The position numbers and the translations under genes were made by a program. DNA of 58,855 nt from a virus (taxonomy: Duplodnaviria; Caudoviricetes). The stretch is taken from IMG/VR virus record IMGVR_UViG_3300034111_001673, positions 1 to 58,855 of that record, one strand, 5' to 3'. Below the pieces are notes generated by a model. It was not told the origin of the DNA. It searched no databases and worked only from the letters and a program-made list of their open reading frames with translations. Positions 1 through 58,855 of the stretch are shown one piece after another (within the stretch, counting starts at the first letter, position 1; each line of letters opens with the position of its first letter).

Positions 1-127
1 ATCTATATCCCCAATTATCCTGATACCAGCTACTTTCGAGTAATGATCTATTCTTCTGTGCATGCTCAAGACTTAAGGAATTAACGCAGGAAACAGTTAA
101 AAACCGCTCACTAGGGTTATGTATCCA
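1..127. repeat. Terminal direct repeat (127 bp, identical to 58729..58855); circular-assembly overlap
   Basis: Exact match ATCTATATCCCC...TTATGTATCCA at both ends; the TerL frame is continuous across it. Confidence 0.95.
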
Positions 128-433
128 CACCCACGCAGGAAAAGCTACCGATATTAAATTGGTTTTACCGGTACGAGGAGGAACGTTAATAATCAGCTTC
201 TTTATTTGCCGCGCGTAAACCGCTTCTAAATGCTCAGCTATTGCCTTTATATGCCAGCTATCAACATAAGGCATATTACCTTCAATATAAGGCCATGCCG
301 CCTTAAAGAATTCATATAAAGATATTTCTGCCAAGGCTGGTTCTTTAAGAGCAGAGACTGTTTGCGCCCATTCTTTTAAAAAAGATTCATTAAGAAATTG
401 ATGTTTCTGGAAAGAGTTGTGATGCCGTGCCAT
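1..433 (-). CDS. terL: Terminase large subunit, N-terminal part (continues across the circular junction into 58728..57542; about 539 aa total)
   Basis: Manual translation from ATG at 433: MARHHNSFQ...WHIKAIAEHLEAV...IINVPPRTGKT (Walker A); in frame with IIIIDDP (Walker B) near 58600. Confidence 0.92.
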   Translation of the reverse strand, partial: MARHHNSFQKHQFLNESFLKEWAQTVSALKEPALAEISLYEFFKAAWPYIEGNMPYVDSWHIKAIAEHLEAVYARQIKKLIINVPPRTGKTNLISVAFPAWVWIHNPSERFLTVSCVNSLSLEHAQKNRSLLESSWYQDNWGYR

Positions 434-568
434 AAAATTAAGTTTCCTTTACTTAAAATAATTATAACACACCACTTTCTAATCTTGATTTTCTCGTGCT
501 TTTTTGATTTTGGTCTTGGGATTATTTATGTTATGTTTTTTTAATTTCAAAAATAAAGGAGTGAAATT

Positions 569-1846
569 ATGAAAATCAGAAAATATCTTTTATCAACGAT
601 AATACTTAGTTGCAGTACTGCCTTAGCAAGTGAAGCCCTACCTGTTGCATCAGGTTTAAACATTAAATTTGGAGCTTTTGCTGCTTTTGAAAGTGGATTT
701 GCTAAGCAAGAGAAATTAAAAGGTTCAGAGAAGAACATATCAGCTAATAAAAAAGGCATGGCTTTCTTCAATAACACTGCTTTTGTTGCTAATATTTCCA
801 ATACTTCTGACGATATTACTTATGGTGCTAAAATTGTACTTGCTCCAACAACAAAAAGAAAAGTAAACAATGATTATAATGGTTCTCATGTATTCTTAGA
901 ACATGAGTTTGGTAAAATTGAAGCAGGTTCACCTATTCCTGTTGCAAGAAACATGACTGTAAATGATGGAGCTATACCTGCAAACTACATAAAAACAGGT
1001 ATAGAGTATTTAAAACAAGGTAAAAAAGCAAATCCATCGTTCTTAACCTCGGAAGAAACTATAATCGGTGATTCAATAACTGCCGGTTTAGACTCAGCAA
1101 CTTATAGCAGCGAACCGCCAAGAACAATAAATTATTACACCCCTAAATTTGCTTTGAGCGAATCAAGTAAATTGCAATTTGGTATATCTTATACTCCTGA
1201 TTCGGCTAATACTGGTATAGATAAACCATCTACCAAATCAGATGGTATAACAAAATACGCAATAGAGGAGCAGGCTTTAGAGAGATTTGAGATTGATAAG
1301 TCAATTAAGGATGCGCTAACTGGCGGGATAGTATTTGAGCAAAAATTAACAGAAGAAGCGGAATTAAAACTAGCTCTAACTGGTGAACATGGTAAAGCCG
1401 CAAGTAAAATCAAGAAATTTGCCAATAAAGACGATAAAAACCCACTAGGGGAGTATAAATTAAGTAACTTAAAAGCTTATAATATCGGTGCTGAATTAAA
1501 AATAGGTGATTTTAAGTATAATGCCTGTTATGGCTCTTTCGGTAAAAGTTTGACTTCTAAAGAATTACATAAAGCCGGTAATAAATCTCAATACTATAAT
1601 GCAGGTATTGCCTATACTTATAATACTGCTACGACAACTTATGTAGGATATTTTGCTTCTGATAAGTTTAAAAATAAGGTAAATTCTGTTAAATTAGGTG
1701 TTAGCCACATACTTGCACCGGGACTAAAGCCTTATGCTGAAATCCATGCTTATACCCTTAAAGGTAAGCCTGAATTCTATTCAGAGCTAAAAGCAAAAAA
1801 GGTAAAAGGTACTGTAGCACTACTGGGTGTTAAGTTATCTCTTTAA
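569..1846 (+). CDS. Porin-like outer-membrane beta-barrel
   Basis: Signal peptide, FGKIEAG and INYYTPKF...GISYTP porin motifs, amphipathic terminal strand GVKLSL. Confidence 0.8.
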   Translation: MKIRKYLLSTIILSCSTALASEALPVASGLNIKFGAFAAFESGFAKQEKLKGSEKNISANKKGMAFFNNTAFVANISNTSDDITYGAKIVLAPTTKRKVNNDYNGSHVFLEHEFGKIEAGSPIPVARNMTVNDGAIPANYIKTGIEYLKQGKKANPSFLTSEETIIGDSITAGLDSATYSSEPPRTINYYTPKFALSESSKLQFGISYTPDSANTGIDKPSTKSDGITKYAIEEQALERFEIDKSIKDALTGGIVFEQKLTEEAELKLALTGEHGKAASKIKKFANKDDKNPLGEYKLSNLKAYNIGAELKIGDFKYNACYGSFGKSLTSKELHKAGNKSQYYNAGIAYTYNTATTTYVGYFASDKFKNKVNSVKLGVSHILAPGLKPYAEIHAYTLKGKPEFYSELKAKKVKGTVALLGVKLSL

Positions 1847-1865
1847 TTTAAAAAAAGGTTTTAAA

Positions 1866-2150
1866 ATGAACAAGCAAGAATTTATCGACCATATTGCAAG
1901 TCAACATGGATGTACCAAAAAAGAAGCTGAAAAGGCTATTGATGTATTTACTTCTTCGGTAATTGATGCCTTGGGAGAGGGAAAGGAAATATCCCTTGTT
2001 GGCTTTGGTAATTTTTCCGTAAGCAAGGTTGAAGCAAGAAATGGTATTAATCCAAAAAGTAGAGAAAGTATAAAAATAGCCGCTTATAACCAACCAAAGT
2101 TTAAGGTCGGTCAGAAACTTAAAGATGCTTGTAACAAAAAATCTCGTTGA
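1866..2150 (+). CDS. hup: HU/IHF family DNA-binding protein (start at MNKQEF)
   Basis: MNKQEFID...GFGNFSV...ARNGINPK...PKFKVGQKLKDA signature. Confidence 0.95.
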   Translation: MNKQEFIDHIASQHGCTKKEAEKAIDVFTSSVIDALGEGKEISLVGFGNFSVSKVEARNGINPKSRESIKIAAYNQPKFKVGQKLKDACNKKSR

Positions 2151-3210: not shown

Positions 3211-3543
3211 TCATTTTAAAAATAACTGCACTTTGATTGCACGTTCTACTTCTCGCATATCCTTACTAGAAATTTGACCAATTCTTTTTCCTAGTCTTTC
3301 TTTACTAACAGTCATAATTTGATCAGCCATAGCTTTACTCTTTGTATCACCTATCAAGACATACGCCTCACAAGGATAACATTTCGTAATATTACTAGTC
3401 AGAGGAATAACCTGCACTCTATTGTACATATTATTAAAAAAATCATTGCTTATAATTATTGCAGGTCTAGTTTTTTGTATTTCTCCAGCTATAGAAAAAT
3501 CAAAATCTACCCACCAGATTTCATTTCTCTTCATAGATATCAC
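3211..3543 (-). CDS. mazF: MazF/PemK family toxin
   Basis: EIWWVDF...GEIQKTRPAIIISND...VIPLTS...ADQIMTVSKERL. Confidence 0.9.
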   Translation of the reverse strand: MISMKRNEIWWVDFDFSIAGEIQKTRPAIIISNDFFNNMYNRVQVIPLTSNITKCYPCEAYVLIGDTKSKAMADQIMTVSKERLGKRIGQISSKDMREVERAIKVQLFLK

Positions 3544-3748
3544 CTATACATCCTTCTATCCATTCATAAGCTTCTTTTTCTCTTTCCTCATCTTTAGCCA
3601 TTTCTCTGTAAGCTAATTCTAAACCTTCATCATCTACATAAGATTTTACTAATTTTTCTATTAATTTACTGATTTTTCCTCTTCCTATTATTGAATGTAA
3701 TTCATGATATACATTCTCATTTAAAGTAATTGTTAATTTTTTTTGCAT
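3521..3748 (-). CDS. Cognate antitoxin (RHH-like)
   Basis: Small ORF overlapping the toxin start; N-terminal KKLTITL strand and acidic C-terminus. Confidence 0.8.
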   Translation of the reverse strand: MQKKLTITLNENVYHELHSIIGRGKISKLIEKLVKSYVDDEGLELAYREMAKDEEREKEAYEWIEGCIGDIYEEK

Positions 3749-3907: not shown

Positions 3908-4105
3908 TTATTTACCCATATATGCTCGTAAAGACTTATGCACCAGTTCGCTAAGAGTGATATCATTCTCTAGTGCATAACGCTTTATTTCCTTGTGAAA
4001 GTTCTTATCAACCTTAACCACTAAATTAGCGTTTTTATTATCTTCTAATTGTTTAAGTGCTTTCTCTTTATTTATTGATGGACGACCGGTTTTCAGTGAA
4101 CTCAT
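3908..4105 (-). CDS. ParG-like ribbon-helix-helix partition protein
   Basis: 65 aa, overlaps the parA stop; LVVKVDKNFHKEIKRYALENDITLSELV. Confidence 0.8.
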   Translation of the reverse strand: MSSLKTGRPSINKEKALKQLEDNKNANLVVKVDKNFHKEIKRYALENDITLSELVHKSLRAYMGK

Positions 4106-4725
4106 AATATCTCTTTAATCTCATTTACTATATTTGTAATCTCATGTATCGCATCATTGTTAGTAGTGTCAAAAACAGATTGTCCCTCTGCTGCTGACTT
4201 GGCATACGCAATTCTTTGGGATGTATAGCTTTTCATTATCGGCAGGGAATATCCCTTTAAAGCTTCGGTTACCTCACTACTTAAAGAAGTTGTTGATATT
4301 CTTCTACTAATGCAGAAATAAGCTTTTGGATTTCCATCAGTAATTTGTTGTCTATGTTTTATCACGTCTACCAGCTCTTCAGACGCCCATATATCGTATG
4401 GTGATGGTTGGACAGGTATAATGATTAAATCAGAACATTTTATAGCAGAAACCGCCATATTGGTTAATTGAGGTGCACCGTCAATGATAACCCAATCAAA
4501 ATCATTAGCTATCTTCTTTACGTCCCTTTCAAGAGTTGGTCTGTCCATTCCTATAACAGCTATTTCACTATTACCTACTGCATGCCAATCTCTAGCAGAG
4601 CCTTGAGGGTCTGAATCAACAAGTAATACTTTTGAACCATTTAAGTGAAGTTTACTTGCTATATTCGTTGCAAGCGTAGTTTTACCCACACCGCCTTTTT
4701 GATTTAGTATGGAAACTATTTTCAT
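4102..4725 (-). CDS. parA: ParA/ParF Walker-type partition ATPase (type Ib)
   Basis: NQKGGVGKTT, DSDPQGS, IIDGAP motifs; short form without an N-terminal HTH. Confidence 0.95.
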   Translation of the reverse strand: MKIVSILNQKGGVGKTTLATNIASKLHLNGSKVLLVDSDPQGSARDWHAVGNSEIAVIGMDRPTLERDVKKIANDFDWVIIDGAPQLTNMAVSAIKCSDLIIIPVQPSPYDIWASEELVDVIKHRQQITDGNPKAYFCISRRISTTSLSSEVTEALKGYSLPIMKSYTSQRIAYAKSAAEGQSVFDTTNNDAIHEITNIVNEIKEIL

Positions 4726-4861
4726 ATATATCTTTATAACTTTAGATAAAGATAAGTTTAGCGAATTATTTAAATATGTAAAGTTATTTTTATATAACTA
4801 AATAAAGATATATATTTTAAATATAGTATATATATTATGTAATATTAATATAAAGAAATAA

Positions 4862-5884
4862 TTATTGACTATAATGACCTACAACTGCTTCCCCTAAAAA
4901 CTCAGGAATTAAAGGAACTACTGCATTACCCAGCGATTGCAAACGCTGCATACGACTTCCTCCGTCCGTCCAGCTAATAGGATAGCCCATAAGCCATTCT
5001 ACCCAATCAGGATTCAACCTCTCATCTTTTAATCTTGGTACTTCTGAAGGCTCTTTTCCCCATTGCTTAATTCCTCTGCTGCAATAGTACATGCCAATCT
5101 GCTCTTGTGCACATATTTGGCTAGTTTCCTTAAATCCCCTACATCCTTGTAATCCCTGCTGGTCGGTGTCGGGAAGAATCTTACATATCTGGCTAGCCCC
5201 AGACTTCCTGATATTCCATTCCTGTTGTGTTTCCGAATGCTGCCAGTTTTTGTTACCAGGTAAACATCGTCTTTGCTTATTATATTCCCTATGCTCGCAT
5301 CGCTTGCAGTCGGGGTCGGGAGCATTCTTATAACTGTCTCCAAGTGAGGACTCTGTCTTCTCCTTTCCGACGGACAATCCGACTTTGCCGATGCAAGCGG
5401 GGTGGGCAATAATCCATATTCTATCCCGTCTGTGAGGTGCACCAAAGGCGGAAGCCGGTATGCAATGCCACTCCGCATCATACCCGATCTCCCATAAATC
5501 TTGCAGGACGGCGATAAGTCCTTGACTTCGCAGGTTTGCCACGTTTTCGATAATTGCATATTTTGGTCTGATTTCATTTATTAACCTCTTATATTCTTGC
5601 CATAATCCCGAGCGTTTAGCCGTTATTCCTTTTCGCTTACCTGCTACCGATATATCCTGGCAAGGAAATCCTCCTGCAATTACGTCTATTCTTGGCAGAG
5701 CTTTTAAGTCTTCCTTATGTATAGTGGTAATATCAGAAAATATAGGTACGGATGGCCAATGTTTTTTTAATATTTTTTGGCAGAATGGGTTAATCTCACA
5801 AAATACGACTGTTTTCATCCCTACAGCTTCCAATCCTATTGAAAAGCCACCTATGCCTGAGAAAATATCTAGAACATTTAACAC
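4862..5884 (-). CDS. DNA (cytosine-5) methyltransferase
   Basis: FSGIGG (I), GGFPCQD (IV), ENV (VI), HRRDR (VIII), LMGYP (IX), LGNAVVP (X). Confidence 0.93.
   Translation of the reverse strand: MLNVLDIFSGIGGFSIGLEAVGMKTVVFCEINPFCQKILKKHWPSVPIFSDITTIHKEDLKALPRIDVIAGGFPCQDISVAGKRKGITAKRSGLWQEYKRLINEIRPKYAIIENVANLRSQGLIAVLQDLWEIGYDAEWHCIPASAFGAPHRRDRIWIIAHPACIGKVGLSVGKEKTESSLGDSYKNAPDPDCKRCEHREYNKQRRCLPGNKNWQHSETQQEWNIRKSGASQICKILPDTDQQGLQGCRGFKETSQICAQEQIGMYYCSRGIKQWGKEPSEVPRLKDERLNPDWVEWLMGYPISWTDGGSRMQRLQSLGNAVVPLIPEFLGEAVVGHYSQ
5029..5577 (-). CDS. Nested alternative-frame ORF, beta-subunit-like partner of the C5 methyltransferase
   Basis: Same strand, shifted frame, 182 aa, RSGMMRSG and three PTP repeats (LLPTPLAS, MLPTPTAS, FFPTPTSR). 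Confidence 0.6.
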   Translation of the reverse strand: MKSDQNMQLSKTWQTCEVKDLSPSCKIYGRSGMMRSGIAYRLPPLVHLTDGIEYGLLPTPLASAKSDCPSERRRQSPHLETVIRMLPTPTASDASIGNIISKDDVYLVTKTGSIRKHNRNGISGSLGLARYVRFFPTPTSRDYKDVGDLRKLAKYVHKSRLACTIAAEELSNGEKSLQKYQD

Positions 5885-5956
5885 TTTATCTTACTACTTT
5901 ATGCTCATTCCTTAGCTAAAGTAATTATACCATAGGCTTTAGCTATCCTGATTTTC

Positions 5957-6169
5957 TCATGACTTTTTACAGATATCGTGATGATAAACTTCAGGCTCTC
6001 TAGGACGCAACTTTTCTCTTTCCTTACGAGCTTTGACTAGCTCCTTGTACCGAGCAAATGCCGCTCGTTGATCTTGTTTAATTGCACTTAGTATATCTTT
6101 CTCTTCTTCTGCTAAAGGTTTTCTATATGCCTTTCTACCTACACCATTAATATATCTTCCTGTCGACAT
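5957..6169 (-). CDS. Hypothetical basic protein
   Basis: ORF packed directly after the TerS candidate. Confidence 0.5.
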   Translation of the reverse strand: MSTGRYINGVGRKAYRKPLAEEEKDILSAIKQDQRAAFARYKELVKARKEREKLRPREPEVYHHDICKKS

Positions 6170-6171
6170 GA

Positions 6172-6747
6172 TTATTTTTTAATATTTTTAGTTAAAATAT
6201 CTATATTCTTTAGTACCTGTTCCAGTTCTTTTGCAAATGCTCTTGTTTCTTCTATTTTCATTTCTTTTGATACCGCTTTATCTTCTTGAGTGCGGCTTTC
6301 TATATTCAGTTTAGCTAAGGCTAAACTAGTAAGCTGTTGTGCTTGAGGAACGTTTATTTCACCTTCTTCAAGAGCAGTTAAAGTGCTGTTTATTATTTCC
6401 ATGGCAGATTTATTACCAAATGATAAGTGCAACTCATTATTGTCATTATTGCTTTCCGTACCAAAGCCGGTATTGCGTAAATAAAACTGAATTGCACTTA
6501 AATTAATGGTACTCAACTCATCATTTTTGATAAACCTCCAAAGCCTTGAGAGAACATACTCCTTACCCTTAAAGCGACCCCTCCTCCAGGAGGCCATTAA
6601 AAGGCTATCTTCTTTAAGCTTTCTTTTAAAGCTGGTAGGAGATATCTTTAAGAAATGTGCAATCTCTCTCTGTGTATGACCGTGCGCCGCCAAGGATTCA
6701 ACCTGCGCGGACTCCTCCGGCGTAATATCTCTTTTCTGTTTACTCAT
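6172..6747 (-). CDS. Probable terminase small subunit (N-terminal HTH)
   Basis: VESLAAHGHTQREIAHFLKIS HTH, AIQFYLRN; lies after a ParB-MTase as in many phages. Confidence 0.55.
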   Translation of the reverse strand: MSKQKRDITPEESAQVESLAAHGHTQREIAHFLKISPTSFKRKLKEDSLLMASWRRGRFKGKEYVLSRLWRFIKNDELSTINLSAIQFYLRNTGFGTESNNDNNELHLSFGNKSAMEIINSTLTALEEGEINVPQAQQLTSLALAKLNIESRTQEDKAVSKEMKIEETRAFAKELEQVLKNIDILTKNIKK

Positions 6748-7981
6748 TCAACAATACAGCTTTTTTATTAGTTTCCTTTTCCCACCTCTTTATTATAACA
6801 TCAACATAAATAGGGGATAATTCCATCATGTAACAGTTACGCTTTGACCTCTCGCAGGCAATTAACGTAGTACCGCTACCGCCAAACGGATCGTAGACAC
6901 TTTCACCTTGCGTAGAGTTATTAAGTATTGGCCGAAGCATACACTCAATAGGTTTTTGTGTGCCGTGTCCCCACGTTTCTTCTATATTATGAGAACTATT
7001 ACCAAATGGATTATTATTCGTAATTTCCCATACGGTAGATTGATCACGTTTGCCCTGCCAGTTATGCTTCTTCCCTTTCCGTACTCCGTACCATAAAGGC
7101 TCATGCTGATGATGATAATCACCACGACTTAATGCAAACTGCTGCTTTGTCCAAATAATCAGACAAATCAATTCAAAACCGCTACTTTCTATATTTTCAG
7201 CAAATTTATGAGTATACTTTGAGCTATGCCAGACATAAGCCACATCACCGGTAAATAACGCATAAGCATCAGACCAGTCATACCTATCATCATTTAGTAC
7301 CTTACCTTTAGAACGCTCCCCGACTCCTAAATCGCATCCTTCGCGCCAGCCTGGATCATACTCCACACCGTACAGCGGATCGGTTACCATTAAAATCGGA
7401 TTTGCCCCAGCCATTAGTTTTTCAACATGCTGCGGATTAGTACTATTCCCACACATTAAACGATGAGACCCAAGCAGGTAAATATCACCAAGCCTAGCAG
7501 TAGCTTCTCCCTCCAGTTCTATTTCCTCTTCTTCCCCTATTTCTTCTAATATGGTTTTATCAAATACAGGCGCGAGCATTTCCTCATCCATACCAAAAGA
7601 TAATAGCTCCTCCATATCAAACCGCTCCGTTAGTACATCAAAGTCATATTCACCGAATGCTAGGTTATCTCTGATATTCAACCTGTCTATTTCCTCCGGT
7701 GTTAGTTTTCTACTCGGCATTAACACCTCAATTTCAGTCTCATCATCATAACCTGCCATGTGTAAAGCTTTTTTACGCTGGTGGCCGCCGATAATGGTGT
7801 AATCGTTATCTACTATTATTCTCTGATGATACCCGTCCTCCTTTATATGAGCAGCTAGTTTATCCAGCATTTCCTTGGTTATCTTTCTTGGATTATGGGT
7901 ATATTCTTTTAAGCAGGCCAGTTTAATATTAGTAGCCTGCCATGTTATAGTTTCATGATTAGTTTGATGATTCATTTTCAT
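6740..7981 (-). CDS. ParB-domain plus N4/N6 DNA methyltransferase (catalytic motif DPLY instead of DPPY)
   Basis: HNPRKI...GHQR ParB domain; HGTQKP, DPFGGSGTT SAM-binding motif. Confidence 0.88.
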   Translation of the reverse strand: MKMNHQTNHETITWQATNIKLACLKEYTHNPRKITKEMLDKLAAHIKEDGYHQRIIVDNDYTIIGGHQRKKALHMAGYDDETEIEVLMPSRKLTPEEIDRLNIRDNLAFGEYDFDVLTERFDMEELLSFGMDEEMLAPVFDKTILEEIGEEEEIELEGEATARLGDIYLLGSHRLMCGNSTNPQHVEKLMAGANPILMVTDPLYGVEYDPGWREGCDLGVGERSKGKVLNDDRYDWSDAYALFTGDVAYVWHSSKYTHKFAENIESSGFELICLIIWTKQQFALSRGDYHHQHEPLWYGVRKGKKHNWQGKRDQSTVWEITNNNPFGNSSHNIEETWGHGTQKPIECMLRPILNNSTQGESVYDPFGGSGTTLIACERSKRNCYMMELSPIYVDVIIKRWEKETNKKAVLLNE

Positions 7982-8261
7982 ACTCCTTAATTAACCTACT
8001 CATAAACCCTTCTGGACAATCAGTAATGACTTGTTGTATTGCTACTTGGCTAAGAGTATCTAAAACCTTAAGAGTTGCTTTGTTATTGTTTTCCAACAAT
8101 CGAGACAATACTTCTAAAAATATACCATCATTACTTCTTTCATTGATTAACCACAAAAGGTCATTTTTAAACTCATTATTAATATGGGATTGTAAATAAT
8201 GCTCTATAACAATTTCTTCACATTTGGCTTTAGCCATAGTACCTCTCATATAGTTTAGCAA
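7959..8261 (-). CDS. Hypothetical protein
   Basis: ORF in a tightly packed operon. Confidence 0.5.
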   Translation of the reverse strand: MLNYMRGTMAKAKCEEIVIEHYLQSHINNEFKNDLLWLINERSNDGIFLEVLSRLLENNNKATLKVLDTLSQVAIQQVITDCPEGFMSRLIKEYENESSN

Positions 8262-9189
8262 TTTTTTTATCTTTTGGAGCTTCTAGCCTAATTATGTGTT
8301 TACCTTGATTCACAGTTAATTCTAAATCCTCAACCGACTCAGATAATGCCGTTAAGTTTCGTGTTACTAGTTTCTTGTGTTTGTCTATATTAGATACACA
8401 AGCTAAGAAATTCTCTTTTTGCCCAAGGTAGCTATTTAAAAGTGCATGACGGATTCCCGTTAAATCTTTACTCGTATTAAGGTCTTCTAATTCATTATAA
8501 ATACCGCTAACGTATTTCTGAATAACAGCTACTCCGCTACCTTTTATTTTCAAATGAACTATCCGCTTATCTTCTTCCGATTGCTTTGCTTGTTTAATTT
8601 CGGTATAGACCTTGTTAATACTAGACTTACCTTCTGCAACTTTGGCTTTTTGTTCTTCTGTTCCTTTGCGTTGGATAGCATCGTACTGGAATGCTGTAGT
8701 ATGGCTTACTCCTGCTTTCTGGGCAATAATGTCTAGAGTCTTGCTATTTTCTGTCTCACTCCGTGGGGTTAGCGCTAACCTATCGGTAGACTGGCTTAGT
8801 TCTGCACTTTCTTCTTGCTTGGAAAATTGTTTTAAAGCGGATAATTGCCTCTCTCTTGCCTTCTGTGCTTCAAACTCCTTGAGCTTATAGGCAAGAGCAA
8901 CCCTGATTTCCGTAGGCAAATTCCTTCTACTAAACTGGTTATTAATCATCCAGAGCTTTACGTCCAGCTCGGTTTCCAGCTCTGTCTTTTCTATTATGTT
9001 AAAGCTTATGTTGTGCTTAATACAGATAGCATACCTATGGTGTCCGTCTATTATAGTATTATTCCATATTATTAATGGATTGAGACAACCATCATTAAGC
9101 AAACTCTGCTCTAATCTATCTAACTCATCACTGGATAACGGAGGAATAAGTTTTGCAAATTCTTCGTTAATAATAAAATCTGTATTCAT
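8230..9189 (-). CDS. ParB N-terminal domain protein
   Basis: LIPPLSSDEL...IIDGHHRYAIC...NQFSRRNL, followed by an HTH. Confidence 0.75.
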   Translation of the reverse strand: MNTDFIINEEFAKLIPPLSSDELDRLEQSLLNDGCLNPLIIWNNTIIDGHHRYAICIKHNISFNIIEKTELETELDVKLWMINNQFSRRNLPTEIRVALAYKLKEFEAQKARERQLSALKQFSKQEESAELSQSTDRLALTPRSETENSKTLDIIAQKAGVSHTTAFQYDAIQRKGTEEQKAKVAEGKSSINKVYTEIKQAKQSEEDKRIVHLKIKGSGVAVIQKYVSGIYNELEDLNTSKDLTGIRHALLNSYLGQKENFLACVSNIDKHKKLVTRNLTALSESVEDLELTVNQGKHIIRLEAPKDKKIAKLYERYYG

Positions 9190-9220: not shown

Positions 9221-10117
9221 TTACGCTATTCGTGCAAATTCTCTATGTAGTTTCTTAGCTGCCCTGCAGTAAGCTTTATGAGCTTCTTCGGCGGTATCGA
9301 AATAGCCTAGATGATAAGATTTCTTCTTTTTAATAATAGTAGCTTTATATTTACTTACTTGTTTGCTAAAAGAAACTCCTTTAAAAGCTGAAGTATTGTT
9401 GCTGGGCTTTTTCCTATGACAGCTAATTTGCGATGGAGTTGCCTCTCTTAAATTCTCTATTCTAGTATTCCGAGAGTTGCCGTCCACAAAAGATACACAC
9501 TCAGGTAAATAACCATGAAACATTAGAAATATTAATCGTGATACCATATAGGTTTTTTGTTCAGATGGAATATAAAGAGAAAAGTAACCGCCATTAGTCA
9601 GGAAAAAACAAGCTTTATCACCTTTTTTAATTTTTATACCTTGAGCAACCTTCCAATAAAGCTCTCCATCCCGATACTCCAACAACCTTTTGACCTTTGC
9701 TTGTGTGAGTAGGGATTTAACTTTTTTGACTTCCTCTTCTACGGCTTGGAGTTTTACGGGTTTTGGTTTTTTAATAGTTTCGGTTTGCTCTGCCGATAGG
9801 ACTAGCTGAGCAGGTACTTGCTCCTTATCTAAAGTGGTTTGAAGAGTTTTAATAGTCTCTTTTAGCTTATAAACACCGAACTCTAAATCAATAACTCTAG
9901 CAAGAGTAGGGTCTATTTGTGGTTTTTGTTTAACTTTCTGATATCTCTCGTAAGACATACCAAAGGCATTAGCTGCTATTTTTTCTGCTTTACTTAATTC
10001 TGCTGATTCTAAGTGTATTCCATGAACTTCTAGAGCTGTTGTTATTTTATTTTTAAAATCTTCGTAATCCTTGCGGAAATTCTTGATTTCTTTTATTCCT
10101 CTAAAAAATGTGATCAT
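9221..10117 (-). CDS. HNH-like/AP2 domain endonuclease with an unusual N-terminal extension
   Basis: LLEYRDGELYW...DGNSRNTRIENLREAT...NNTSAFKGVSF...HLGYFDTAEEAHKAY; the canonical DH appears as SF. Confidence 0.75.
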   Translation of the reverse strand: MITFFRGIKEIKNFRKDYEDFKNKITTALEVHGIHLESAELSKAEKIAANAFGMSYERYQKVKQKPQIDPTLARVIDLEFGVYKLKETIKTLQTTLDKEQVPAQLVLSAEQTETIKKPKPVKLQAVEEEVKKVKSLLTQAKVKRLLEYRDGELYWKVAQGIKIKKGDKACFFLTNGGYFSLYIPSEQKTYMVSRLIFLMFHGYLPECVSFVDGNSRNTRIENLREATPSQISCHRKKPSNNTSAFKGVSFSKQVSKYKATIIKKKKSYHLGYFDTAEEAHKAYCRAAKKLHREFARIA

Positions 10118-18721: not shown

Positions 18722-18970
18722 ATGAAAAAATGGCAAATGCAAGAAGCTAAAGCAAAATTAAGCAAGCTTATAAAATCTGCTGTTAATTATGGCCCACAAG
18801 AAATAAGTGTTAGAGGTAAATCAACGGCAGTTATTCTATCTATCGATAAGTATAGAGAGTTAGTAAACACCAAAGATAATTTGGTAAAATTTATGCGAAA
18901 ATCCCCGTTGGTAGGTATAGTATTGGATATTGAAAGAAATGCTGACGCACCACGGAAAATTAACTTATAA
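18722..18970 (+). CDS. Phd/YefM family antitoxin
   Basis: WQMQEAKAKLSKLI...GPQEISVRG. Confidence 0.9.
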   Translation: MKKWQMQEAKAKLSKLIKSAVNYGPQEISVRGKSTAVILSIDKYRELVNTKDNLVKFMRKSPLVGIVLDIERNADAPRKINL

Positions 18971-18972
18971 TT

Positions 18973-37527: not shown

Positions 37528-37800
37528 TTACAAATTATTATTTTCTTGCGAGAACATAACCAAATAGGCTTTTTTTGCCCAGTCTTCCCAGTTTTTAAAG
37601 GCAAGTTCATTTTTCCTGCCTCCCTTATAGGGACTCGGTACTCCTCTATTTGCAAATGGCTCGATACCTATTAAATTCTCTGCCCATGCTGCCCATTTTG
37701 TTTCATCATGAAGCACAGGAAGAGGGAAATCCGAATAATCATCGCAAACAGTAGCTGCCCAGTATTTAACGTTAATATATTTGGGATAAACGCTAATCAT
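37528..37800 (-). CDS. Small virion-associated protein
   Basis: Trp-rich WAAWA...P.PY...F..WEDWA; follows the nozzle gene. Confidence 0.55.
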   Translation of the reverse strand: MISVYPKYINVKYWAATVCDDYSDFPLPVLHDETKWAAWAENLIGIEPFANRGVPSPYKGGRKNELAFKNWEDWAKKAYLVMFSQENNNL

Positions 37801-49265: not shown

Positions 49266-50195
49266 TTAAGCTGTAGAACCTGTTGCGCCAATTACCCCAA
49301 GAGGAGTAAACATACCAAAAGAATAACGACCAGATGCAAGTACTGACATGGTTTCAGTTACGGGATCAGTTGTTACGTTTACTTTAAGCGGACGTCTTAC
49401 AAAATGCTTACGACTTCCCTTAACATTAGTTAATCCAAACCAGTTGCTAGGACTTGTTAAGAAATGGCTTACTTCATAACCTTGTGGAATAGCCTTCATG
49501 TTATAAAGTGCATTTACATCGTTATTAGCCGTTCCTGTTCTAAATACAGATTCAAGTAACCTGCAACCTGAGAACATTAAATCTTGTGGAAGTAGCAATC
49601 TCTCAATTTGAGCATTAATTAGCAGTCCTGCTTGATCTTTCATTTTACCTGCTAGTATTACTGCTTGTTCAACACCCACTTCACTAAAGTCGACATTAAT
49701 ATTAGCGTTGTTATTTGCCCCAACGCGATTAGAATAAACCCCGCCATCGTAAGGCTGAGAAAAGGAGCAAAGAGGTTGTCCGTTAGCCAAAGTAGCTGCC
49801 GTATTAAATGCCTGGTTAAAAGGGTTCATGGCTACTACTTCTCTGGTTTGTTCATAAGAAGTAGTAAGCGATTTAGTACCATTAAAGAACTGATCGGCAT
49901 AAAGATCATCTTCCATGGCAATATTAGTAATCTGAAAACCGAGGGCAAATTCCCGGTGGACGAATTCATAAACAAACCGCTCAGCCATGGTATCCATTTT
50001 AATAGGAGCACCTTGCGTTTTCTCAAGTGCATAGCCAGTCCCTCTAATATCAACCATCCTTTCAGTATGTTTGACAGAATTAGCCTGTTCATAGATTTTG
50101 GTATATTCCCCCTTAAACCGATCATACTGAGATTTTACCTCATAAAGACCTGGCCAAAGCAGACTTGGAATATCACCGGTTGTTATAATAGACAT
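49266..50195 (-). CDS. Major capsid protein (Mu gpT-like, HK97 fold)
   Basis: LLWPGL...EY..IY...E...G.G...K..G...H..FALGF.IT...EDD.Y...RYSFG. Confidence 0.85.
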   Translation of the reverse strand: MSIITTGDIPSLLWPGLYEVKSQYDRFKGEYTKIYEQANSVKHTERMVDIRGTGYALEKTQGAPIKMDTMAERFVYEFVHREFALGFQITNIAMEDDLYADQFFNGTKSLTTSYEQTREVVAMNPFNQAFNTAATLANGQPLCSFSQPYDGGVYSNRVGANNNANINVDFSEVGVEQAVILAGKMKDQAGLLINAQIERLLLPQDLMFSGCRLLESVFRTGTANNDVNALYNMKAIPQGYEVSHFLTSPSNWFGLTNVKGSRKHFVRRPLKVNVTTDPVTETMSVLASGRYSFGMFTPLGVIGATGSTA

Positions 50196-51857: not shown

Positions 51858-52949
51858 TTAACTACCAAATACCACAACAGATACGCCATCAAGTACAGGA
51901 AGTAAATTACCGAGCGTATCGGTTGCAAAAATGATGACCTCCGTCGCTGATCTAGACCTAAAGAACACCTGAAACGGCGCTATGACCTCCGTTCCGCGTG
52001 CTAATGCCGGTAATACTAAATAATTACCATCAGGAAAAGGAGTAGCAAACGTTATAACATATGACCCTTGCGCTCCGCTAACCGAGGCTATATTAAAGCT
52101 GCTCTCTATCTGGATATTATTAGTCGGGGCATTATTATCGTAAAAGAAACAATAAGCCTTAGCAGTAGCAGGATTTATAATCTTCCCCGGTATTGTCATA
52201 TTACCGACATTGTCAATTTGAGTACTATTTAAATTGATTACTCCATCATCTACAGTAGCGAGGTTAATATCCTCACTCCCGCTTGCCGTAGTAATGGTAT
52301 TTACCGAGATTAAGAGATTACCTACATTAATACTGGATAATCCTACTAGAGAATCTGCTAAATTAATAATTACATCATTTGTTTCCCCATCACCGCTTTG
52401 GACGTTTATATTAGAGCCGCCTCCTATCTTTCGAGTTACAAAACTTAATGGAGTATTGCCGGTTATTACTAAAAACCCATTCTGTACTTGAGTAGCTAGA
52501 TTATTTAAATTATTTAACGAATCGGCAATTTTAAAAATGATGTTACCGGTCGGAGGAGTAACAGTTGAATTTGTAATCTGCAAGCTGTTATTCTGGCTTT
52601 CCGTAGAAAAGCTTACTATACCGCTGCTACCGCCACCAAAAGGTATTACCTGCCATACTCCCGCGCTGGTTAGATTCTCAGTGAGATATATCTGTATTAC
52701 TTCCCCTGGAATAATTACGTTAGTTAACGGCGTTCCGTCATTATATAAGAGAGTAAAGTCTTTTTGTCCGACATTATTAAACAACAGGCTAGTACCGGTT
52801 TCTACAGTATTGGCAGGCGGCAAAGTAATTGTATACGCATCATTGCTAGAGCTAACATTATTAATATCGCTGGCGATTTCTCCTTCAGTGCGGGGATAAG
52901 GCCAAGATAGTTTAATATCGCTATTTAATATGATTTTAGAATATGACAT
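51858..52949 (-). CDS. Head/tail fibre-like structural protein
   Basis: TITLPPA...G; C-terminal AKAYCFF...SFNIASVS...GSYVITFATPF. Confidence 0.6.
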   Translation of the reverse strand: MSYSKIILNSDIKLSWPYPRTEGEIASDINNVSSSNDAYTITLPPANTVETGTSLLFNNVGQKDFTLLYNDGTPLTNVIIPGEVIQIYLTENLTSAGVWQVIPFGGGSSGIVSFSTESQNNSLQITNSTVTPPTGNIIFKIADSLNNLNNLATQVQNGFLVITGNTPLSFVTRKIGGGSNINVQSGDGETNDVIINLADSLVGLSSINVGNLLISVNTITTASGSEDINLATVDDGVINLNSTQIDNVGNMTIPGKIINPATAKAYCFFYDNNAPTNNIQIESSFNIASVSGAQGSYVITFATPFPDGNYLVLPALARGTEVIAPFQVFFRSRSATEVIIFATDTLGNLLPVLDGVSVVVFGS

Positions 52950-54394: not shown

Positions 54395-54823
54395 TTACCT
54401 TGATACTTTTGATGGATTATCGACTAGCAGCTTGATTTTAAAATCCTCTACCATAATGATCGGTTCACCCTCATATTTTGACTGCAATGATGAACCACGC
54501 GGGAATATGACCCAGTCTCCGGCTTTGACGTAAGGGCCGCTTGGAAACTGATCGCCCTTATAACTATCGGGGCCCAGCTTTAATACCATCCCGACCATTG
54601 AGTTATATTCCAGGTCATCCTTTACGGCCGTTTGCGGAATAATAACTCCGCCTCTTGTAACTTCTTCAACAGGGGGTTTGTAAATAAGAATTAAGACGTT
54701 AATGCCGGTAACCGATACTTCCTTAAATCTTTCAATCATTACCTCCTTATTAAAAGCTTCCAGATCAATGCCTTTGGTTTTAAAATCTTCCGGTTTGTAA
54801 TTGGCTATTTCACAGTTAGTCAT
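54395..54823 (-). CDS. groES: GroES-like co-chaperonin
   Basis: EEVTRGGVIIP...GMVLKLGP...VKAGDWVIF...YEGE. Confidence 0.8.
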   Translation of the reverse strand: MTNCEIANYKPEDFKTKGIDLEAFNKEVMIERFKEVSVTGINVLILIYKPPVEEVTRGGVIIPQTAVKDDLEYNSMVGMVLKLGPDSYKGDQFPSGPYVKAGDWVIFPRGSSLQSKYEGEPIIMVEDFKIKLLVDNPSKVSR

Positions 54824-55031: not shown

Positions 55032-55201
55032 TTACCGCTCCTCCCCATATTTCTAGGTTTTACTGCCGCTCCGCTTTTTGTAGCAACGTCCTTTCTAATT
55101 TTAGCCGCTCCCCCGGCGGCATACTTATTACAGCTCGTTTCTTTTTCTCTGGCTCTCTCTTGCATTTGGCGAGTAGCGAACTCTCTTTTTTGCCTATCCA
55201 T
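55028..55201 (-). CDS. 57-aa basic peptide with YAAGG motif (not in ORF track)
   Basis: MDRQKREFATRQMQERAREKETSCNKYAAGGAAKIRK...; overlaps both neighbouring genes. Confidence 0.55.
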   Translation of the reverse strand: MDRQKREFATRQMQERAREKETSCNKYAAGGAAKIRKDVATKSGAAVKPRNMGRSGK

Positions 55202-57542
55202 AAATAATCTCCTCTTTTTCTGGTGTGGATGAAATTTGCGATCTTAGAGCTTCTACTTGTGCCTTTAACTCAGCTTCTTTTGCCTTGTACTCAAGCTTTA
55301 GTAGTTCAAGCTCGTTCTTAGTACTCATTTCCTGTTCCTTGGTTAACGTGTCTATTACTTTTTCTTTCTCGTTTAACTGGAGCTTTAAAAGTTCAATCTG
55401 ATATTTCTGCTCAGCAAGTTGTTGTTGTTCATTAACTTTTAATTCAGCTAAATACTTCTCTTGTTCCAGTTTTTCCTTATCAAGCTCGATACTCATTTGC
55501 GTCTTATAGCCGTCAGCTTCAATATTTAAGTGAGCTAGACGTTCTTTTGACTCTACTTCAAGTTTTCGTTGCTCAATGTCAGCAATCTGTACCTGTAATG
55601 CCGGGTCTATAGGTTGTTGTTCCTGCTGTTCTTGCGGTGGTGGTTCGGGAAGTAGTATCTTATCAATGTCCTTAATCCCTAGGGCTTGATATACTTTTAA
55701 ATATACTTCTCGCATGTTATGTAGCTCAGGGCTACTGCTAGCTAACTTTAAAATACTTTCTGCCTTGATTATTCTCTGCGTAGAAGATTCAACAGAAGGA
55801 TCAGATACGGGAATGACCTTTAAACTCTCTTTATCTAGAGGTAGCGTGCTAAGATTGAACATTTTATAAAAGAGCTGTAGCTCGGTGCTAAAGCTACTAT
55901 GGACTGTTCTCATTATTGCCGATTGCATCCGATTGGATACTTCAAGCAAGGCAATCGTAGTACCGACAGGTGTATTCTGATTATTTTCAGTAAGTCCCAT
56001 CTCTGTTGCGGAGGCTAGCTCCTGTGTTTGAGCAGTTATCCGGTTAATATATTCAAGCAAAGCTGGCGATGGTCCATTATAAGGAAGAGGCATGATTGAA
56101 TCACGCAAGGACAAATTACCGGTTTCAACAGTTACGAATTGACCAGGTAATATATTCAAATCATTATTAGTAGTTTTTATTCCCTTAGCCTTCATCCCTC
56201 CCGGGAAATTCTGGAAAATAGCTGCATCAATCGCCATTTGCTGCATGGAAGTTAAGCTCTTTGAATTAGAGCCAAGTATTTGAGCAAGCCCCAGTCCAAA
56301 AACATCAAACCCGGGGAATAAATTATAATGAATGAAGCAGTTAATCCTTGTTTTAGTTGGATCGTTTTCATCCCAGTTTGGCGTAAGTGATACGATCTGA
56401 TTACTGCTGCCGCATCTGGTAATAACATAAGGTAATGGTATACTATAGTCCTCAGATGCATTGTTATTGTCAAAAAAATCATTCAAAACCAGATATTCGT
56501 GCGTCTCATAAAAAGGAAAACGGGAATTTGTTGGGTCTACCTGTTTTGGTTTCAAATCGTCCGTTGCTTCTTCTCCATCGCTGCTACCTACACTATCTAG
56601 GTAATCAAGATCAACTTTTGAAAATATCCCGCTTTGCATGTTAAAAAGGATTTCTCTTTTAGAGAGGTATCTAATATGAGTTAGACGATTTGATTCGGTA
56701 ATACTTGAGCAGTTATTATCAAATAAAAAGTCCTCAGGCATGATAAACCTACTTAAGGGCTTACCTGTAATAGAGTCATAGTAGATTTTACGAAATACAC
56801 ACCCATATAAAATTAAGTACAATAAGAACCGATCGTAGTCTGGATAAAAACCCTTATCTTCTACTGTTAAGTACTCATTTAAAGCATCCCTAACCATCTC
56901 GCCTTTTAATTCGTAATCTTCGCTAACACTAACATCAGTCCTAAATCCTACAGGACCGGTTGAGGGGAGTAACTCGGAGCGAAGAGTTGCCCAGAGCCGG
57001 AGCACGCTGCTAGAGAAAGTAGTATCGTAAGTCTTAACCTGGGCAGCGTTTCCAATGGAAGAATTGGATTTAGATTTGACATTATTTGGGTCTTGTATTT
57101 CCTCAATTTTAAAGCCAAGTAAGGTTTTAGCCTTTTCAATTATATCAAGCCATGGTGCGCGGTTTTTAGTATCTTTTTCTGTTACCTCTTCTAAGTAAGC
57201 AGCGATTTTATCTCTGACGCTTTCCGGTATATCATCCGCAAAGTTACTATTAAAGGTAGCATCCGGAGGTGCTAATTCTTCGCCCTTCTTATCTATACGT
57301 GATAAGATTTGATCTTCTAGGGAAATAAGTGCTTCTTCTTCCGGTAAAACCGGTTCATCTAAACTACCTGTTTCTTGTGGTAGGATTTGTTCTTCCATCG
57401 GCATTTCTTGAGTCAAATTTAGAAATTCAGGCTCAAGGTTCTCGGTAACAGATAAATCGGGGATAACCTTATCCCTTTTCTTCCGTCTTTTCCTCATGCT
57501 ATCTAATCTCGCCTCTTTCAAGGCTCTACTTCCTACTGCCAT
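55194..57542 (-). CDS. Portal protein (P22-like, long C-terminal helix)
   Basis: Follows TerL; ELLP..GPV, G..FRK.YYD, PVGTTIALLE, IPVSDP. Confidence 0.85.
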   Translation of the reverse strand: MAVGSRALKEARLDSMRKRRKKRDKVIPDLSVTENLEPEFLNLTQEMPMEEQILPQETGSLDEPVLPEEEALISLEDQILSRIDKKGEELAPPDATFNSNFADDIPESVRDKIAAYLEEVTEKDTKNRAPWLDIIEKAKTLLGFKIEEIQDPNNVKSKSNSSIGNAAQVKTYDTTFSSSVLRLWATLRSELLPSTGPVGFRTDVSVSEDYELKGEMVRDALNEYLTVEDKGFYPDYDRFLLYLILYGCVFRKIYYDSITGKPLSRFIMPEDFLFDNNCSSITESNRLTHIRYLSKREILFNMQSGIFSKVDLDYLDSVGSSDGEEATDDLKPKQVDPTNSRFPFYETHEYLVLNDFFDNNNASEDYSIPLPYVITRCGSSNQIVSLTPNWDENDPTKTRINCFIHYNLFPGFDVFGLGLAQILGSNSKSLTSMQQMAIDAAIFQNFPGGMKAKGIKTTNNDLNILPGQFVTVETGNLSLRDSIMPLPYNGPSPALLEYINRITAQTQELASATEMGLTENNQNTPVGTTIALLEVSNRMQSAIMRTVHSSFSTELQLFYKMFNLSTLPLDKESLKVIPVSDPSVESSTQRIIKAESILKLASSSPELHNMREVYLKVYQALGIKDIDKILLPEPPPQEQQEQQPIDPALQVQIADIEQRKLEVESKERLAHLNIEADGYKTQMSIELDKEKLEQEKYLAELKVNEQQQLAEQKYQIELLKLQLNEKEKVIDTLTKEQEMSTKNELELLKLEYKAKEAELKAQVEALRSQISSTPEKEEIIYG

Positions 57543-58855
57543 TAGTATAATTTCCTAGGTTTAGTAATTGTCTCATCTTCCTTAACATCACTTGTATGAA
57601 TTAAAGTATCAAAGTCTCGGAGGTATAAAATTGTTTGCGTCATCGAATCAACCAAATCCTTTGATTCCCCATTTGGAAAAGTTATCACTGTTTCTAAAAA
57701 CTCTTCAGCGAACGGAGTTAGCCTTTCAGGATTTTTCTCTTCAGTCGGTAAATAAATAAGTCCGCACTCAATAAGAGGCGCTGCTCTCTGTACTCTTGCA
57801 TTCTTATCGCCTTTTGGGGTGTAGCCTATAGCAGGAACTCCTCCAAGCCTTAGATCACGTATTAAAGGATCGCCCGTTGCCTTTGCTTCTATTAAACAAC
57901 AATCAACAGTTCTTTGAGCCGGCATTGGGTTTTTATGCTCGCCGGTATCCTTATAATCTTTGGCTAAGCGCTGAGCCTTGCTTCGGAGCTCTGGATATCC
58001 TACACGACCCCGCCAACTAGAGAGTAGCATCATCCTAAATAACTCATCCTCGGATTTCTCGCCCCAAACTCCCCACGTAGTACAGGCAGAATAGGCCGCT
58101 GTCGGCTCATCGGAAATTGCCGTATCCCAGCTTTGCAATATGTAATCAAATTTAGGCTTAATAGGGCTAGTCCAGGACTTAAACCATTTTTTCTTGATTA
58201 TTCCGCCGCCAATTGGAGATGGTCTTTGCTGACACTGCCCAGCATATCCATAAGAGCCGAGTAACTTCTTTAATTCACTGACTTGCTTCTCACCAAAGCG
58301 TAAGTCATTAATTACTTCTCCTTCTTTGTTTCTGGGGTCTTCCCAAATAACCTGATCTATGCCAAGCGGCACGGTAATACACTTGCGCTTTTCTTCAAAT
58401 TCTAGCGGCAGCACTAATTCTACCCAATCACCCTCGCTGTCATTCTTTCTGATATAACCGGTTAGATCGTTCTCATGCGTTCTTTGCTGGACAACTATTC
58501 GGCAGTCATTAGCCGGGTTATTTGAACGCGTAGACATTCTTTGCGTCCACCAGTTAATTACGTTCTCTCTTTTGATTTCAGATAAGTCCCCTGGGTCGTT
58601 AGGGTCATCAATAATAATGATTGAACCGCCTTTACCGACAGTTTTAGATACTACGCTTGTTGATTGCCTATATCCTGTTTTGGTATTCTGGAAAAAGCTT
58701 TTAACGTTCTGGTCTCTAAGAAGAGGGAATCTATATCCCCAATTATCCTGATACCAGCTACTTTCGAGTAATGATCTATTCTTCTGTGCATGCTCAAGAC
58801 TTAAGGAATTAACGCAGGAAACAGTTAAAAACCGCTCACTAGGGTTATGTATCCA
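57542..58855 (-). CDS. terL: Terminase large subunit, C-terminal part
   Basis: IIIIDDP, QQRP.P.GG, QSWDTA, IEAKATG, K.AR, FPNG...DLVDSMTQ. Confidence 0.93.
   Translation of the reverse strand, partial: WIHNPSERFLTVSCVNSLSLEHAQKNRSLLESSWYQDNWGYRFPLLRDQNVKSFFQNTKTGYRQSTSVVSKTVGKGGSIIIIDDPNDPGDLSEIKRENVINWWTQRMSTRSNNPANDCRIVVQQRTHENDLTGYIRKNDSEGDWVELVLPLEFEEKRKCITVPLGIDQVIWEDPRNKEGEVINDLRFGEKQVSELKKLLGSYGYAGQCQQRPSPIGGGIIKKKWFKSWTSPIKPKFDYILQSWDTAISDEPTAAYSACTTWGVWGEKSEDELFRMMLLSSWRGRVGYPELRSKAQRLAKDYKDTGEHKNPMPAQRTVDCCLIEAKATGDPLIRDLRLGGVPAIGYTPKGDKNARVQRAAPLIECGLIYLPTEEKNPERLTPFAEEFLETVITFPNGESKDLVDSMTQTILYLRDFDTLIHTSDVKEDETITKPRKLY
58729..58855. repeat. Terminal direct repeat (copy of 1..127)
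   Basis: Exact match. Confidence 0.95.

Follow-up and report, generated by a model that had tools for sequence, protein, structure and literature searches.

Phage particle genes and a rickettsial-type plasmid initiator on one element: a probable phage-plasmid of Candidatus Megaira polyxenophila

The IMG/VR record IMGVR_UViG_3300034111_001673 (Duplodnaviria; Caudoviricetes) is a stretch of 58,855 nucleotides, called the window here in its whole length. It encodes packaging, head and tail proteins of a phage together with replication, partition and stability genes of the kind found on plasmids. Window bases 1–127 are exactly identical to bases 58729–58855, which leaves a unique circle of 58,728 bp, and the gene of the terminase large subunit (TerL) runs over the junction (57542..58728 + 1..433, minus strand) as a single stop-free frame of 539 residues. 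The eight near-complete relatives used for comparison are CP113869.1, pPCS109, five viral-collection contigs and a contig of 62.7 kb from a Rickettsiales metagenome-assembled genome (MAG). Their contigs begin at differing points of a common gene order, and TerL is in one piece, at 94–100% coverage, in 7 of 7 near-complete relatives. The unbroken TerL shows that the junction is true sequence and not an assembly accident. The 127-bp end overlap and the TerL frame across it had both been claimed by the original prediction, which was made from the sequence alone, and both are borne out. Altogether 72 open frames were called, covering 92% of the circle, and all 72 are intact; tRNA and Rfam scans of the window found none. 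The junction and the particle genes are arranged as follows.

1..127, no strand: terminal overlap, identical to 58729–58855
1..433, minus: N-terminal part of TerL, start codon at 433, joining 57542..58855 over the junction
57542..58855, minus: C-terminal 437 residues of TerL (phrog_38, E 2e-51; 539 residues overall)
55194..57542, minus: portal, 782 residues (phrog_1216, E 9e-25)
54395..54823, minus: GroES-like co-chaperonin (Cpn10, E 4e-8), positioned as in phage HTVC023P
53404..54390, minus: putative scaffold-like protein, strongly charged and coiled-coil-looking, assigned from sequence and position
51858..52949, minus: conserved beta-rich virion protein, 363 residues, with a local fibre-like match
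49266..50195, minus: major capsid protein, 309 residues, HK97 fold, Mu gpT-like family, assigned from homologues and a structure model
47415..48485, minus: SU10-type head-to-tail adaptor, 356 residues, with an inserted discoidin (F5/8 type C) domain
42705..46977, minus: three tail-fibre or decoration-like genes of 623, 248 and 492 residues, the last with a Peptidase_S74 chaperone domain
37797..40163, minus: two virion structural proteins, 567 residues (phrog_3287) and 219 residues (phrog_2941)
28383..34787, plus: four large conserved proteins of 532, 675, 315 and 604 residues, without family match

Terminase, portal and major capsid protein are thus present and intact. The 309-residue capsid protein has no direct match in Pfam or PHROG, yet it has 2,040 representative relatives, and among 67 that were aligned, 48 match Mu-like_gpT and 38 match Phage_capsid_4. 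Its AlphaFold model has a predicted local distance difference test (pLDDT) score of 92.3, and the best fold matches in the PDB are HK97-fold virus or virus-like capsids (E about 2e-12). The 363-residue protein encoded at 51858–52949 was also considered as the capsid and rejected; it is beta-rich and fibre-like, PDB and atlas comparisons were uninformative, and the 309-residue protein is the capsid. The adaptor itself matches SU10_adaptor weakly, and PF24175 is found in 54 of its 120 listed homologues. The C-terminal parts of the fibres differ between relatives, as expected if receptor binding is under selection. Within the 623-residue fibre gene a 21-base unit is repeated about 7–8 times (45461–45705), giving a 7-residue repeat, and RNA-library contigs of relatives differ in length there. 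The four large plus-strand proteins match nothing in PHROG or Pfam. The 604-residue one, the last of the four, is 38% identical to a structural-operon protein of the Megaira phage MAnkyphage_25.80, and the four may be internal virion or ejection proteins. Among the window proteins nothing matched a sheath, tube or tape measure, and homology to short-tailed phages suggests a podovirus tail.

The genes that point to a plasmid are listed next, with two initiator genes, rep1 and rep2, and the repeats embedded in them.

3908..4725, minus: partition operon, small ParA of 207 residues (AAA_31, E 1e-28) and a 65-residue partner
4724..4852, no strand: AT-rich inverted and direct repeats directly upstream of parA, candidate centromere or operator
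23166..24254, minus: Rep1, DnaA-like plasmid initiator of the Megaira/Rickettsia plasmid family, 362 residues
about 23735–23815, no strand: palindrome and conserved AT-rich stretch inside rep1
13052..14497, minus: Rep2, second DnaA-like initiator paralogue, 481 residues, 64% identical to a MAnkyphage protein
14001..14060, no strand: three 16-bp palindromes at 22-bp spacing, then an AT-rich stretch, inside rep2; candidate origin
3211..3748, minus: MazF/PemK toxin and a 75-residue upstream antitoxin candidate
18722..19386, plus: Phd/YefM antitoxin and PIN (VapC-type) toxin
19559..20170, plus: small serine recombinase (resolvase; E 3e-43), 97–98% conserved in 4 relatives

ParA is a small Walker-type protein without an N-terminal DNA-binding domain, its recognised domains covering residue 1 onward. 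Its best match is from Megaira, followed by Rickettsia endosymbiont plasmids at 65% identity and then by thousands of plasmid ParA genes at about 55%. It is present in all 8 relatives, and in 4 of the 5 fetched viral-collection relatives it is 98–100% identical. The 65-residue protein encoded downstream displays a strand-helix-helix pattern and a weak DUF6364 match. Of the predicted pair, ParA is confirmed, and the partner looks like a ribbon-helix-helix protein by its sequence pattern only. The operon resembles a type Ib partition system, in which a small ParA goes with a ParG-like ribbon-helix-helix protein and an upstream centromere; ParA fits this type, and the 65-residue protein and the repeats upstream of parA are candidates for the other two parts. 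The resolvase and the two toxin-antitoxin pairs, MazF with its small upstream gene and Phd with the PIN toxin, were likewise found as predicted, and no Phage_integrase match was obtained when about 70 window open reading frames (ORFs) were scanned against Pfam (E <= 0.01), in line with the claim that an integrase is lacking.

Rep1 is 51% identical to the pPCS109 gene that the depositors placed at position 1 as 'DnaA', and 33% identical to a protein of the Megaira plasmid CP113870.1 that carries a DnaA_N domain. Protein matches to Rep1 occur in 13 of 72,556 plasmid records, 11 from Megaira and 2 from Rickettsia, with no others, and at least 7 of the 8 relatives encode it. The plasmid side of the element is thus represented by ParA and by Rep1 of a rickettsial plasmid initiator family. 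In Rickettsia shuttle vectors parA and a dnaA-like gene sufficed for replication, according to the available text of PMC3244465. Rickettsia plasmids such as pRAM18, pRAM32 and pRM, which carry dnaA-like and parA genes, share the Rep1 family with the window, and patatin and major facilitator superfamily (MFS) transporter genes are typical cargo of those plasmids too. We know of no report of phage particle genes on Rickettsia plasmids, although no systematic search was made. A patatin gene on pRAM32 is described in the available text of PMC3244465.

The host was sought through relatives in sequence collections. At the DNA level, matches in the plasmid collection come exclusively from Candidatus Megaera (Megaira) polyxenophila of the Rickettsiaceae (6, 4 and 3 records for three query pieces), and the two short matches in the phage collection both belong to Megaira polyxenophila phage MAnkyphage_25.80. 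CP113869.1 (64.4 kb) and pPCS109 (AP017967.1, 109 kb) are 86–89% identical in DNA over 18–93% of the three query pieces. CP113869.1 is the 'plasmid unnamed2' of Candidatus Megaera polyxenophila NDG2, and both records are circular and belong to closed Megaira genomes. The NDG2 genome is a hybrid Nanopore/Illumina assembly from a symbiont of the ciliate Euplotes woodruffi (PMC10847448, as far as its available text goes). In all, three closed Megaira genomes from protist cultures hold relatives as circular replicons. With tblastn at >=50% coverage, 41 of the 72 window proteins are present in CP113869.1, 42 in pPCS109 and 35–57 in the six further near-complete relatives. These comparisons, with the Rep1 family confined to Megaira and Rickettsia and the ParA next best in Rickettsia endosymbiont plasmids, hold the host to be Candidatus Megaira polyxenophila, a bacterium living inside freshwater protists, as judged from sequence likeness. 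The original prediction had named a Rickettsiaceae-type endosymbiont and had asked whether best matches would fall outside Rickettsiales; none did in the DNA, initiator and ParA comparisons. Its remark on how few phages are described for this group agrees with the phage collection, where Megaira has a single phage record.

CP113869.1 and pPCS109 share with the window the order terminase, portal, capsid, fibres, patatin, four large proteins, RecT/YqaJ, Rep1, methylases, ParA and porin. They differ from it by being without Rep2, the resolvase and the helicase block, in place of which they have group II introns, insertion sequence (IS) elements and cargo with a GTPase or nonribosomal peptide synthetase (NRPS). 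In pPCS109 one transposase and one integrase gene lie inside the gene of the 567-residue virion protein; this copy is kept as a plasmid, because mobile-element genes interrupt its virion gene. None of the 8 near-complete relatives has chromosomal flanks, so linkage of the ends to chromosomal DNA, by which the predicted maintenance as a plasmid prophage could have been contradicted, did not appear. With relatives that are circular plasmids of closed Megaira genomes, ParA in 8 of 8, Rep1 in at least 7 of 8 and no integrase, that maintenance is supported as probable. Family contigs cluster at 50–63 kb, and one relative with a portal locus has 56,326 bases. Taken together, we consider it quite probable that the window holds, in full, the genome of a phage-plasmid whose host is Candidatus Megaira polyxenophila.

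A second NDG2 plasmid, CP113870.1 (57.4 kb), has a terminase 92% identical, a family-B DNA polymerase, a primase-helicase, YqaJ/RecT and a DnaA_N initiator. Neither a portal nor a capsid protein is encoded, and a third of its length is taken up by two giant SecA-like genes. This plasmid may be a decayed phage-plasmid or a satellite.

The metagenomic origin of the window, and a mosaic family in which segments 100% identical to the relative G001 occur beside others at 45–80%, would also fit a chimera, in which the assembly had joined a phage to a separate plasmid of that metagenome. We regard this as extremely improbable. The same interleaved order of plasmid and phage genes recurs in 8 independent near-complete relatives, the hybrid long-read closed plasmid among them, and this recurrence excludes a chimera in practice.

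The ratio of nonsynonymous to synonymous substitutions (dN/dS) was calculated pairwise between the window and seven relatives. In 7 of 7 comparisons it was 0.09–0.11 for the capsid protein, 0.06–0.16 for the portal, 0.07–0.16 for the terminase and 0.03–0.36 for most other particle genes; proteins of 128, 149 and 258 residues reached 0.44–0.54 in their most divergent comparisons. ParA gave 0.00–0.05 in the five relatives at 98–100% identity (CP113869 included). The particle genes are under purifying selection. These values bear on the explanation that the element is a plasmid with a domesticated or decaying phage module, which would make no infectious virions and at most transfer-agent-like or tailocin-like particles serving the host. 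The 109-kb pPCS109 with its interrupted virion gene favors such a history, as does the failure to recognise a lysis cassette, and gene-transfer agents have been reported in Rickettsiales (available text of bioRxiv 10.64898/2026.03.27.714854). It is nevertheless quite unlikely to apply to the window, where 72 of 72 frames are open and the sole IS lies outside the particle genes. Selection on the particle genes is strong in every comparison, the size of the element is near that of related phage genomes, and among relatives the fibre genes are diversifying and recombining, as one would not expect of a particle that had been domesticated. The open frames, the strong selection and the fibre diversity together weaken a domesticated or decaying module as an explanation.

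Blocks that are 97–100% identical to one relative adjoin blocks at 45–80%. In the comparison of window 35156–44353 with G001, the coiled-coil and outer membrane protein (OMP) cargo, patatin and two fibre genes are 97–100% identical at the protein level, and some segments reach 100%; the methylase-side helix-turn-helix (HTH) protein, the 258-residue head protein and the adaptor are 45–74% identical. The pattern points to recent recombination among co-circulating family members. Variable fibres and mosaic blocks fit a recombining, receptor-driven evolution of a phage. As to occurrence, 67 portal-related loci were found in the viral collection, and 1 in the one-genome-per-species collection (the Rickettsiales MAG). 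Fourteen lake or freshwater DNA runs contain at least half of the words sampled from the last 10 kb, 3 of the 14 being possibly the source, and contigs from runs of two other studies that fall within the 20-kb stretch compared show zero differences to the window.

The nearest annotated phages by protein are Pelagibacter phages HTVC023P and HTVC027P, Roseobacter phages CRP-901 and CRP-902, phages of Planktothrix and Caulobacter, and few others, at 25–36% identity, with genomes mostly of 50–65 kb, similar to the element. TerL, portal, capsid, a further head protein and the adaptor are homologous, at 29–35%, to those of HTVC023P-type pelagiphages and CRP-901-type roseophages, which are cultured lytic podoviruses of 52–61 kb. 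HTVC023P has terminase, portal, GroES and capsid in the same order as the window; just 5 of the 72 window proteins were matched in the 40.9 kb of HTVC023P examined. In the available text of bioRxiv 10.1101/2019.12.14.876532, HTVC023P is described as lytic, devoid of lysogeny genes and, from microscopy, a podovirus, and the same holds for the cultured head-module relatives as lytic podoviruses lacking lysogeny genes (that source and PMC10149686, also in its available text). A short tail has thus been seen in cultured HTVC023P-type relatives, whereas the window element is known from its genes. HTVC023P-type phages carry PolA, primase and helicase and are lytic, whereas the element has plasmid replication and partition genes instead; no DNA polymerase (PolA) or primase domain was found in the window proteins with Pfam.

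These cultured relatives lend some weight to a further explanation, by which the element would simply be a phage with a circularly permuted genome that replicates lytically or chronically, ParA, resolvase and toxin-antitoxin genes would be accessory, and the Megaira 'plasmids' would be replicating or leftover phage DNA. Several observations agree with it or otherwise weigh against a phage-plasmid. The 127-base overlap proves closure of the assembly only and cannot separate a circle from a circularly permuted linear phage genome, which gives the same overlap, and all five fetched viral-collection relatives are classed 'linear'. The plasmid state is proven for copies that lack Rep2, one of them IS-disrupted in a virion gene, and may belong to such decaying copies, the environmental ones being plain phages. 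DnaA_N (PF11638) was undetected in the window Rep1 and Rep2 at Pfam E <= 0.01. Tail nozzle, small terminase and lysis gene were not recognised in Pfam and PHROG scans of the window proteins; the predicted 'full podovirus head/tail set' therefore stands for terminase, portal, GroES, capsid, adaptor and fibres and falls short for nozzle and small terminase, and the word podovirus partly goes beyond the genes seen. Contigs of two riverine RNA libraries, 90–99% alike to the window, span the capsid region and terminase, and one extends 309 bases beyond the window end; they derive from relatives, possibly from DNA, and give a hint only, with stretches lacking RNA contigs (about 40.9–44.9 kb) being uninformative.

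A plain phage is, all the same, an unlikely account of the element. In place of PolA and primase it has an initiator of a family limited to Megaira and Rickettsia plasmids. ParA is a core gene, 98–100% identical in 4 of 5 fetched relatives with dN/dS of 0.00–0.05 in those four and CP113869, and relatives exist as circular replicons in three closed Megaira genomes obtained from protist cultures. The plasmid-only initiator, the constrained ParA and the circular relatives together weaken this alternative, and a phage-plasmid remains the preferred reading.

Classical phage-plasmids such as P1, N15 and SSU5 likewise combine a phage gene set with replication, partition, multimer resolution and addiction genes and have no integrase. 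No sequence relation to them was seen, and the window differs by its short tail, as suggested by homology, and its obligate intracellular host. Pfeifer et al. 2021 (PMC7969092) describe short-tailed phage-plasmids as few or rare, and the available main text does not mention Rickettsiales. CP113869.1 and pPCS109 are annotated neither as phage nor as phage-plasmid. We found no paper calling Megaira plasmids phage-plasmids, although these plasmids may be listed in the supplementary files of PMC10847448 and PMC7969092, outside the texts searched. A literature search for Megaira with 'phage-plasmid' gave only a Wolbachia plasmid paper that cites Megaira in its references, and the words 'phage' and 'plasmid' are absent from the available text of Davison et al. 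2023 (PMC10132079). The close relatives are therefore already public under the label of plasmids only, and their reading as phage-plasmids is unreported in the literature found.

Hardly any phages have been described for the Rickettsia family, whose members are difficult subjects for genetic work. The family described here, of roughly 50–63 kb and common in freshwater metagenomes, joins a short-tailed phage that looks functional with the type of plasmid replicon usual in its hosts' family. Its reading as phage-plasmids would mean that public Megaira 'plasmid' records include phage-plasmids, and it would explain how porin, transporter, patatin and toxin-antitoxin cargo moves among endosymbionts sealed in protist cells.

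On this reading the element would have two life states. In the plasmid state it would persist as a low-copy circular plasmid. Rep1 would fire an origin probably located inside rep1, ParA with its ribbon-helix-helix partner and the repeats upstream of parA would segregate the copies, the serine resolvase would resolve multimers, and the two toxin-antitoxin pairs would kill cells that lose the element. In the phage state an HK97-fold capsid with a short tail of the HTVC023P/SU10 type would be formed, and the element's own terminase would package the ~59-kb genome. Rep2 with its three palindromic sites and AT-rich stretch may drive vegetative replication, in which the helicase, YqaJ/RecT and the RuvC-like resolvase may assist. 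The two states, the location of the origins, the shape of the tail and the production of virions are what we infer from the gene content.

The evidence for two initiators, which had been predicted, comes from both proteins. Rep1 belongs to the rickettsial plasmid family, and the N-terminal domain of Rep2 is homologous to Rep1, with 26% identity over 137 residues (pairwise E 5e-7). DnaA_N is present in the CP113870 homologue of Rep1 and in one longer relative, and Rep2 aligns weakly from end to end with the DnaA_N-bearing CP113870 protein (E 0.07). Neither initiator has a match in PHROG or Pfam, nor in PDB sequences at E <= 1. A DnaA_N-like fold of Rep2 was also sought by structure and not found. 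The model, built from an alignment of 6 sequences, has a mean pLDDT of 50 and is confident at about residues 270–475 only; a Foldseek comparison with the PDB yielded 0 matches at E <= 0.001, BON and KH-type domains ranking highest.

With both strands searched and one mismatch tolerated, the palindrome pattern in rep2 occurs 7 times in the window against 1.7 expected; none of 100 shuffles gave that many. The palindrome of the window does not occur in its exact form in relatives, and the variant array becomes visible only when the orthologous gene stretches are aligned. In G002, G004 and MAnkyphage (L003, about 14400–14500) an array lies at the same place, with TGGACAAAAATGTCCA where the window has TGGAAAAAAATTTCCA. 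The change from TGGAAAAAAATTTCCA to TGGACAAAAATGTCCA is symmetric, affecting both half-sites in all three copies, while spacing and AT-rich stretch are kept; the G004 Rep2 is 95% identical to that of the window. Likewise, rep1 genes have one palindrome at the matching place, which varies with paired changes and is followed by a conserved AT-rich stretch. The array in rep2 is a candidate embedded origin because its palindromes change symmetrically between relatives, and the palindromes with the AT-rich stretches of both genes may be initiator binding sites or origins embedded in the initiator genes. An origin inside the initiator gene is the arrangement of lambda O/ori and P1 repL/oriL.

Rep2 is absent from CP113869.1 and pPCS109. 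The Rep2 slot of G001, G003 and G005 (L082:11918–13753, L089:971–2527 and L096:9985–11835, respectively) encodes proteins with the same C-terminal half and a different N-terminal half. These variants carry internal repeats of their own, in G005 a 24-bp unit repeated 2.5 times that contains AAGGAYACCCC. The exchange suggests swapped DNA-binding specificity in the proteins of these three relatives.

MAnkyphage_25.80 (OP381185.1, 38.4 kb), which infects the same host and has T7-like structural genes, shares 8 of the 72 window proteins, including Rep2 (64%), YqaJ (78%), RecT, the resolvase (47%) and patatin (32%), and has the same three-palindrome array within its Rep2 gene. Its capsid, portal, terminase and tail genes are unrelated to those of the window; it is without ParA, and it encodes no homologue that spans half or more of Rep1. 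A tentative proposal, which we hold to be possible and rather doubtful as a whole, is that the element has two replicons with paralogous DnaA-like initiators and origins in their own genes. Rep1 would serve plasmid upkeep and Rep2 vegetative replication, Rep2 would be exchanged with MAnkyphage, and copies without Rep2 would be plasmid-locked. P1 offers a parallel, having one origin for the plasmid state and a lytic one inside repL. What is new here is an architecture of two initiators with embedded palindromes that co-vary, and the arrays offer a concrete, testable origin-initiator pair. If the proposal is true, a naturally transmissible, plasmid-capable phage passes between endosymbionts inside protists and provides a defined origin-initiator pair for bacteria that are very hard to manipulate.

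The remaining genes comprise further DNA-modifying and recombination functions and cargo.

569..2150, plus: porin (Porin_4) and HU-family DNA-binding protein; porin in 7 of 8 relatives, divergent from TerL
4862..7981, minus: C5 cytosine methyltransferase, HTH protein and ParB_N-fused N6/N4 methyltransferase
8230..9189, minus: ParB-like nuclease
9221..10117, minus: HNH endonuclease with AP2 domain
11388..13046, minus: superfamily-2 helicase (ResIII, Helicase_C)
15323..16642, plus: MFS transporter, ProP-like cargo
21245..22818, plus: IS1595-family insertion sequence with 29-nt inverted ends (93% complementary)
26023..28205, plus: YqaJ exonuclease and RecT recombinase, with a small ORF between
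35156..36837, minus: cargo of a coiled-coil protein and a beta-barrel OMP (OMP_b-brl, Surface_Ag_2), in 2 of 8 relatives only
36839..37312, minus: RuvC-like Holliday-junction resolvase
40690..41853, minus: patatin-like phospholipase, in 8 of 8 relatives, highly divergent (35–38% amino acid identity in most)

The cargo named by the original prediction, porin, MFS transporter, beta-barrel OMP with Surface_Ag_2 and patatin, was all found. The porin gene (569–1846) is the divergent neighbour of the terminase in 7 of 8 relatives and has a dN/dS of 0.07–0.16, an unusual conserved companion of a packaging gene. The IS1595 element (21245–22818) was found in 0 of 10 relatives compared, and no clear target-site duplication lies alongside it; it is probably a recent insertion because it is missing from these ten. 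The 263-residue protein encoded at 2276–3067 has a weak N-terminal match to Tad2-like proteins of Thoeris anti-defence (E 8e-5; 23.5 bits, below the 25-bit cut-off) and may be an anti-defence gene product. Patatin occurs in both of the otherwise unrelated Megaira phages, the window element and MAnkyphage (L003:7256–8299), beside tail or packaging genes, and Wolbachia phage WO carries a patatin too. Our guess is that patatin has a role in crossing host or vacuole membranes.

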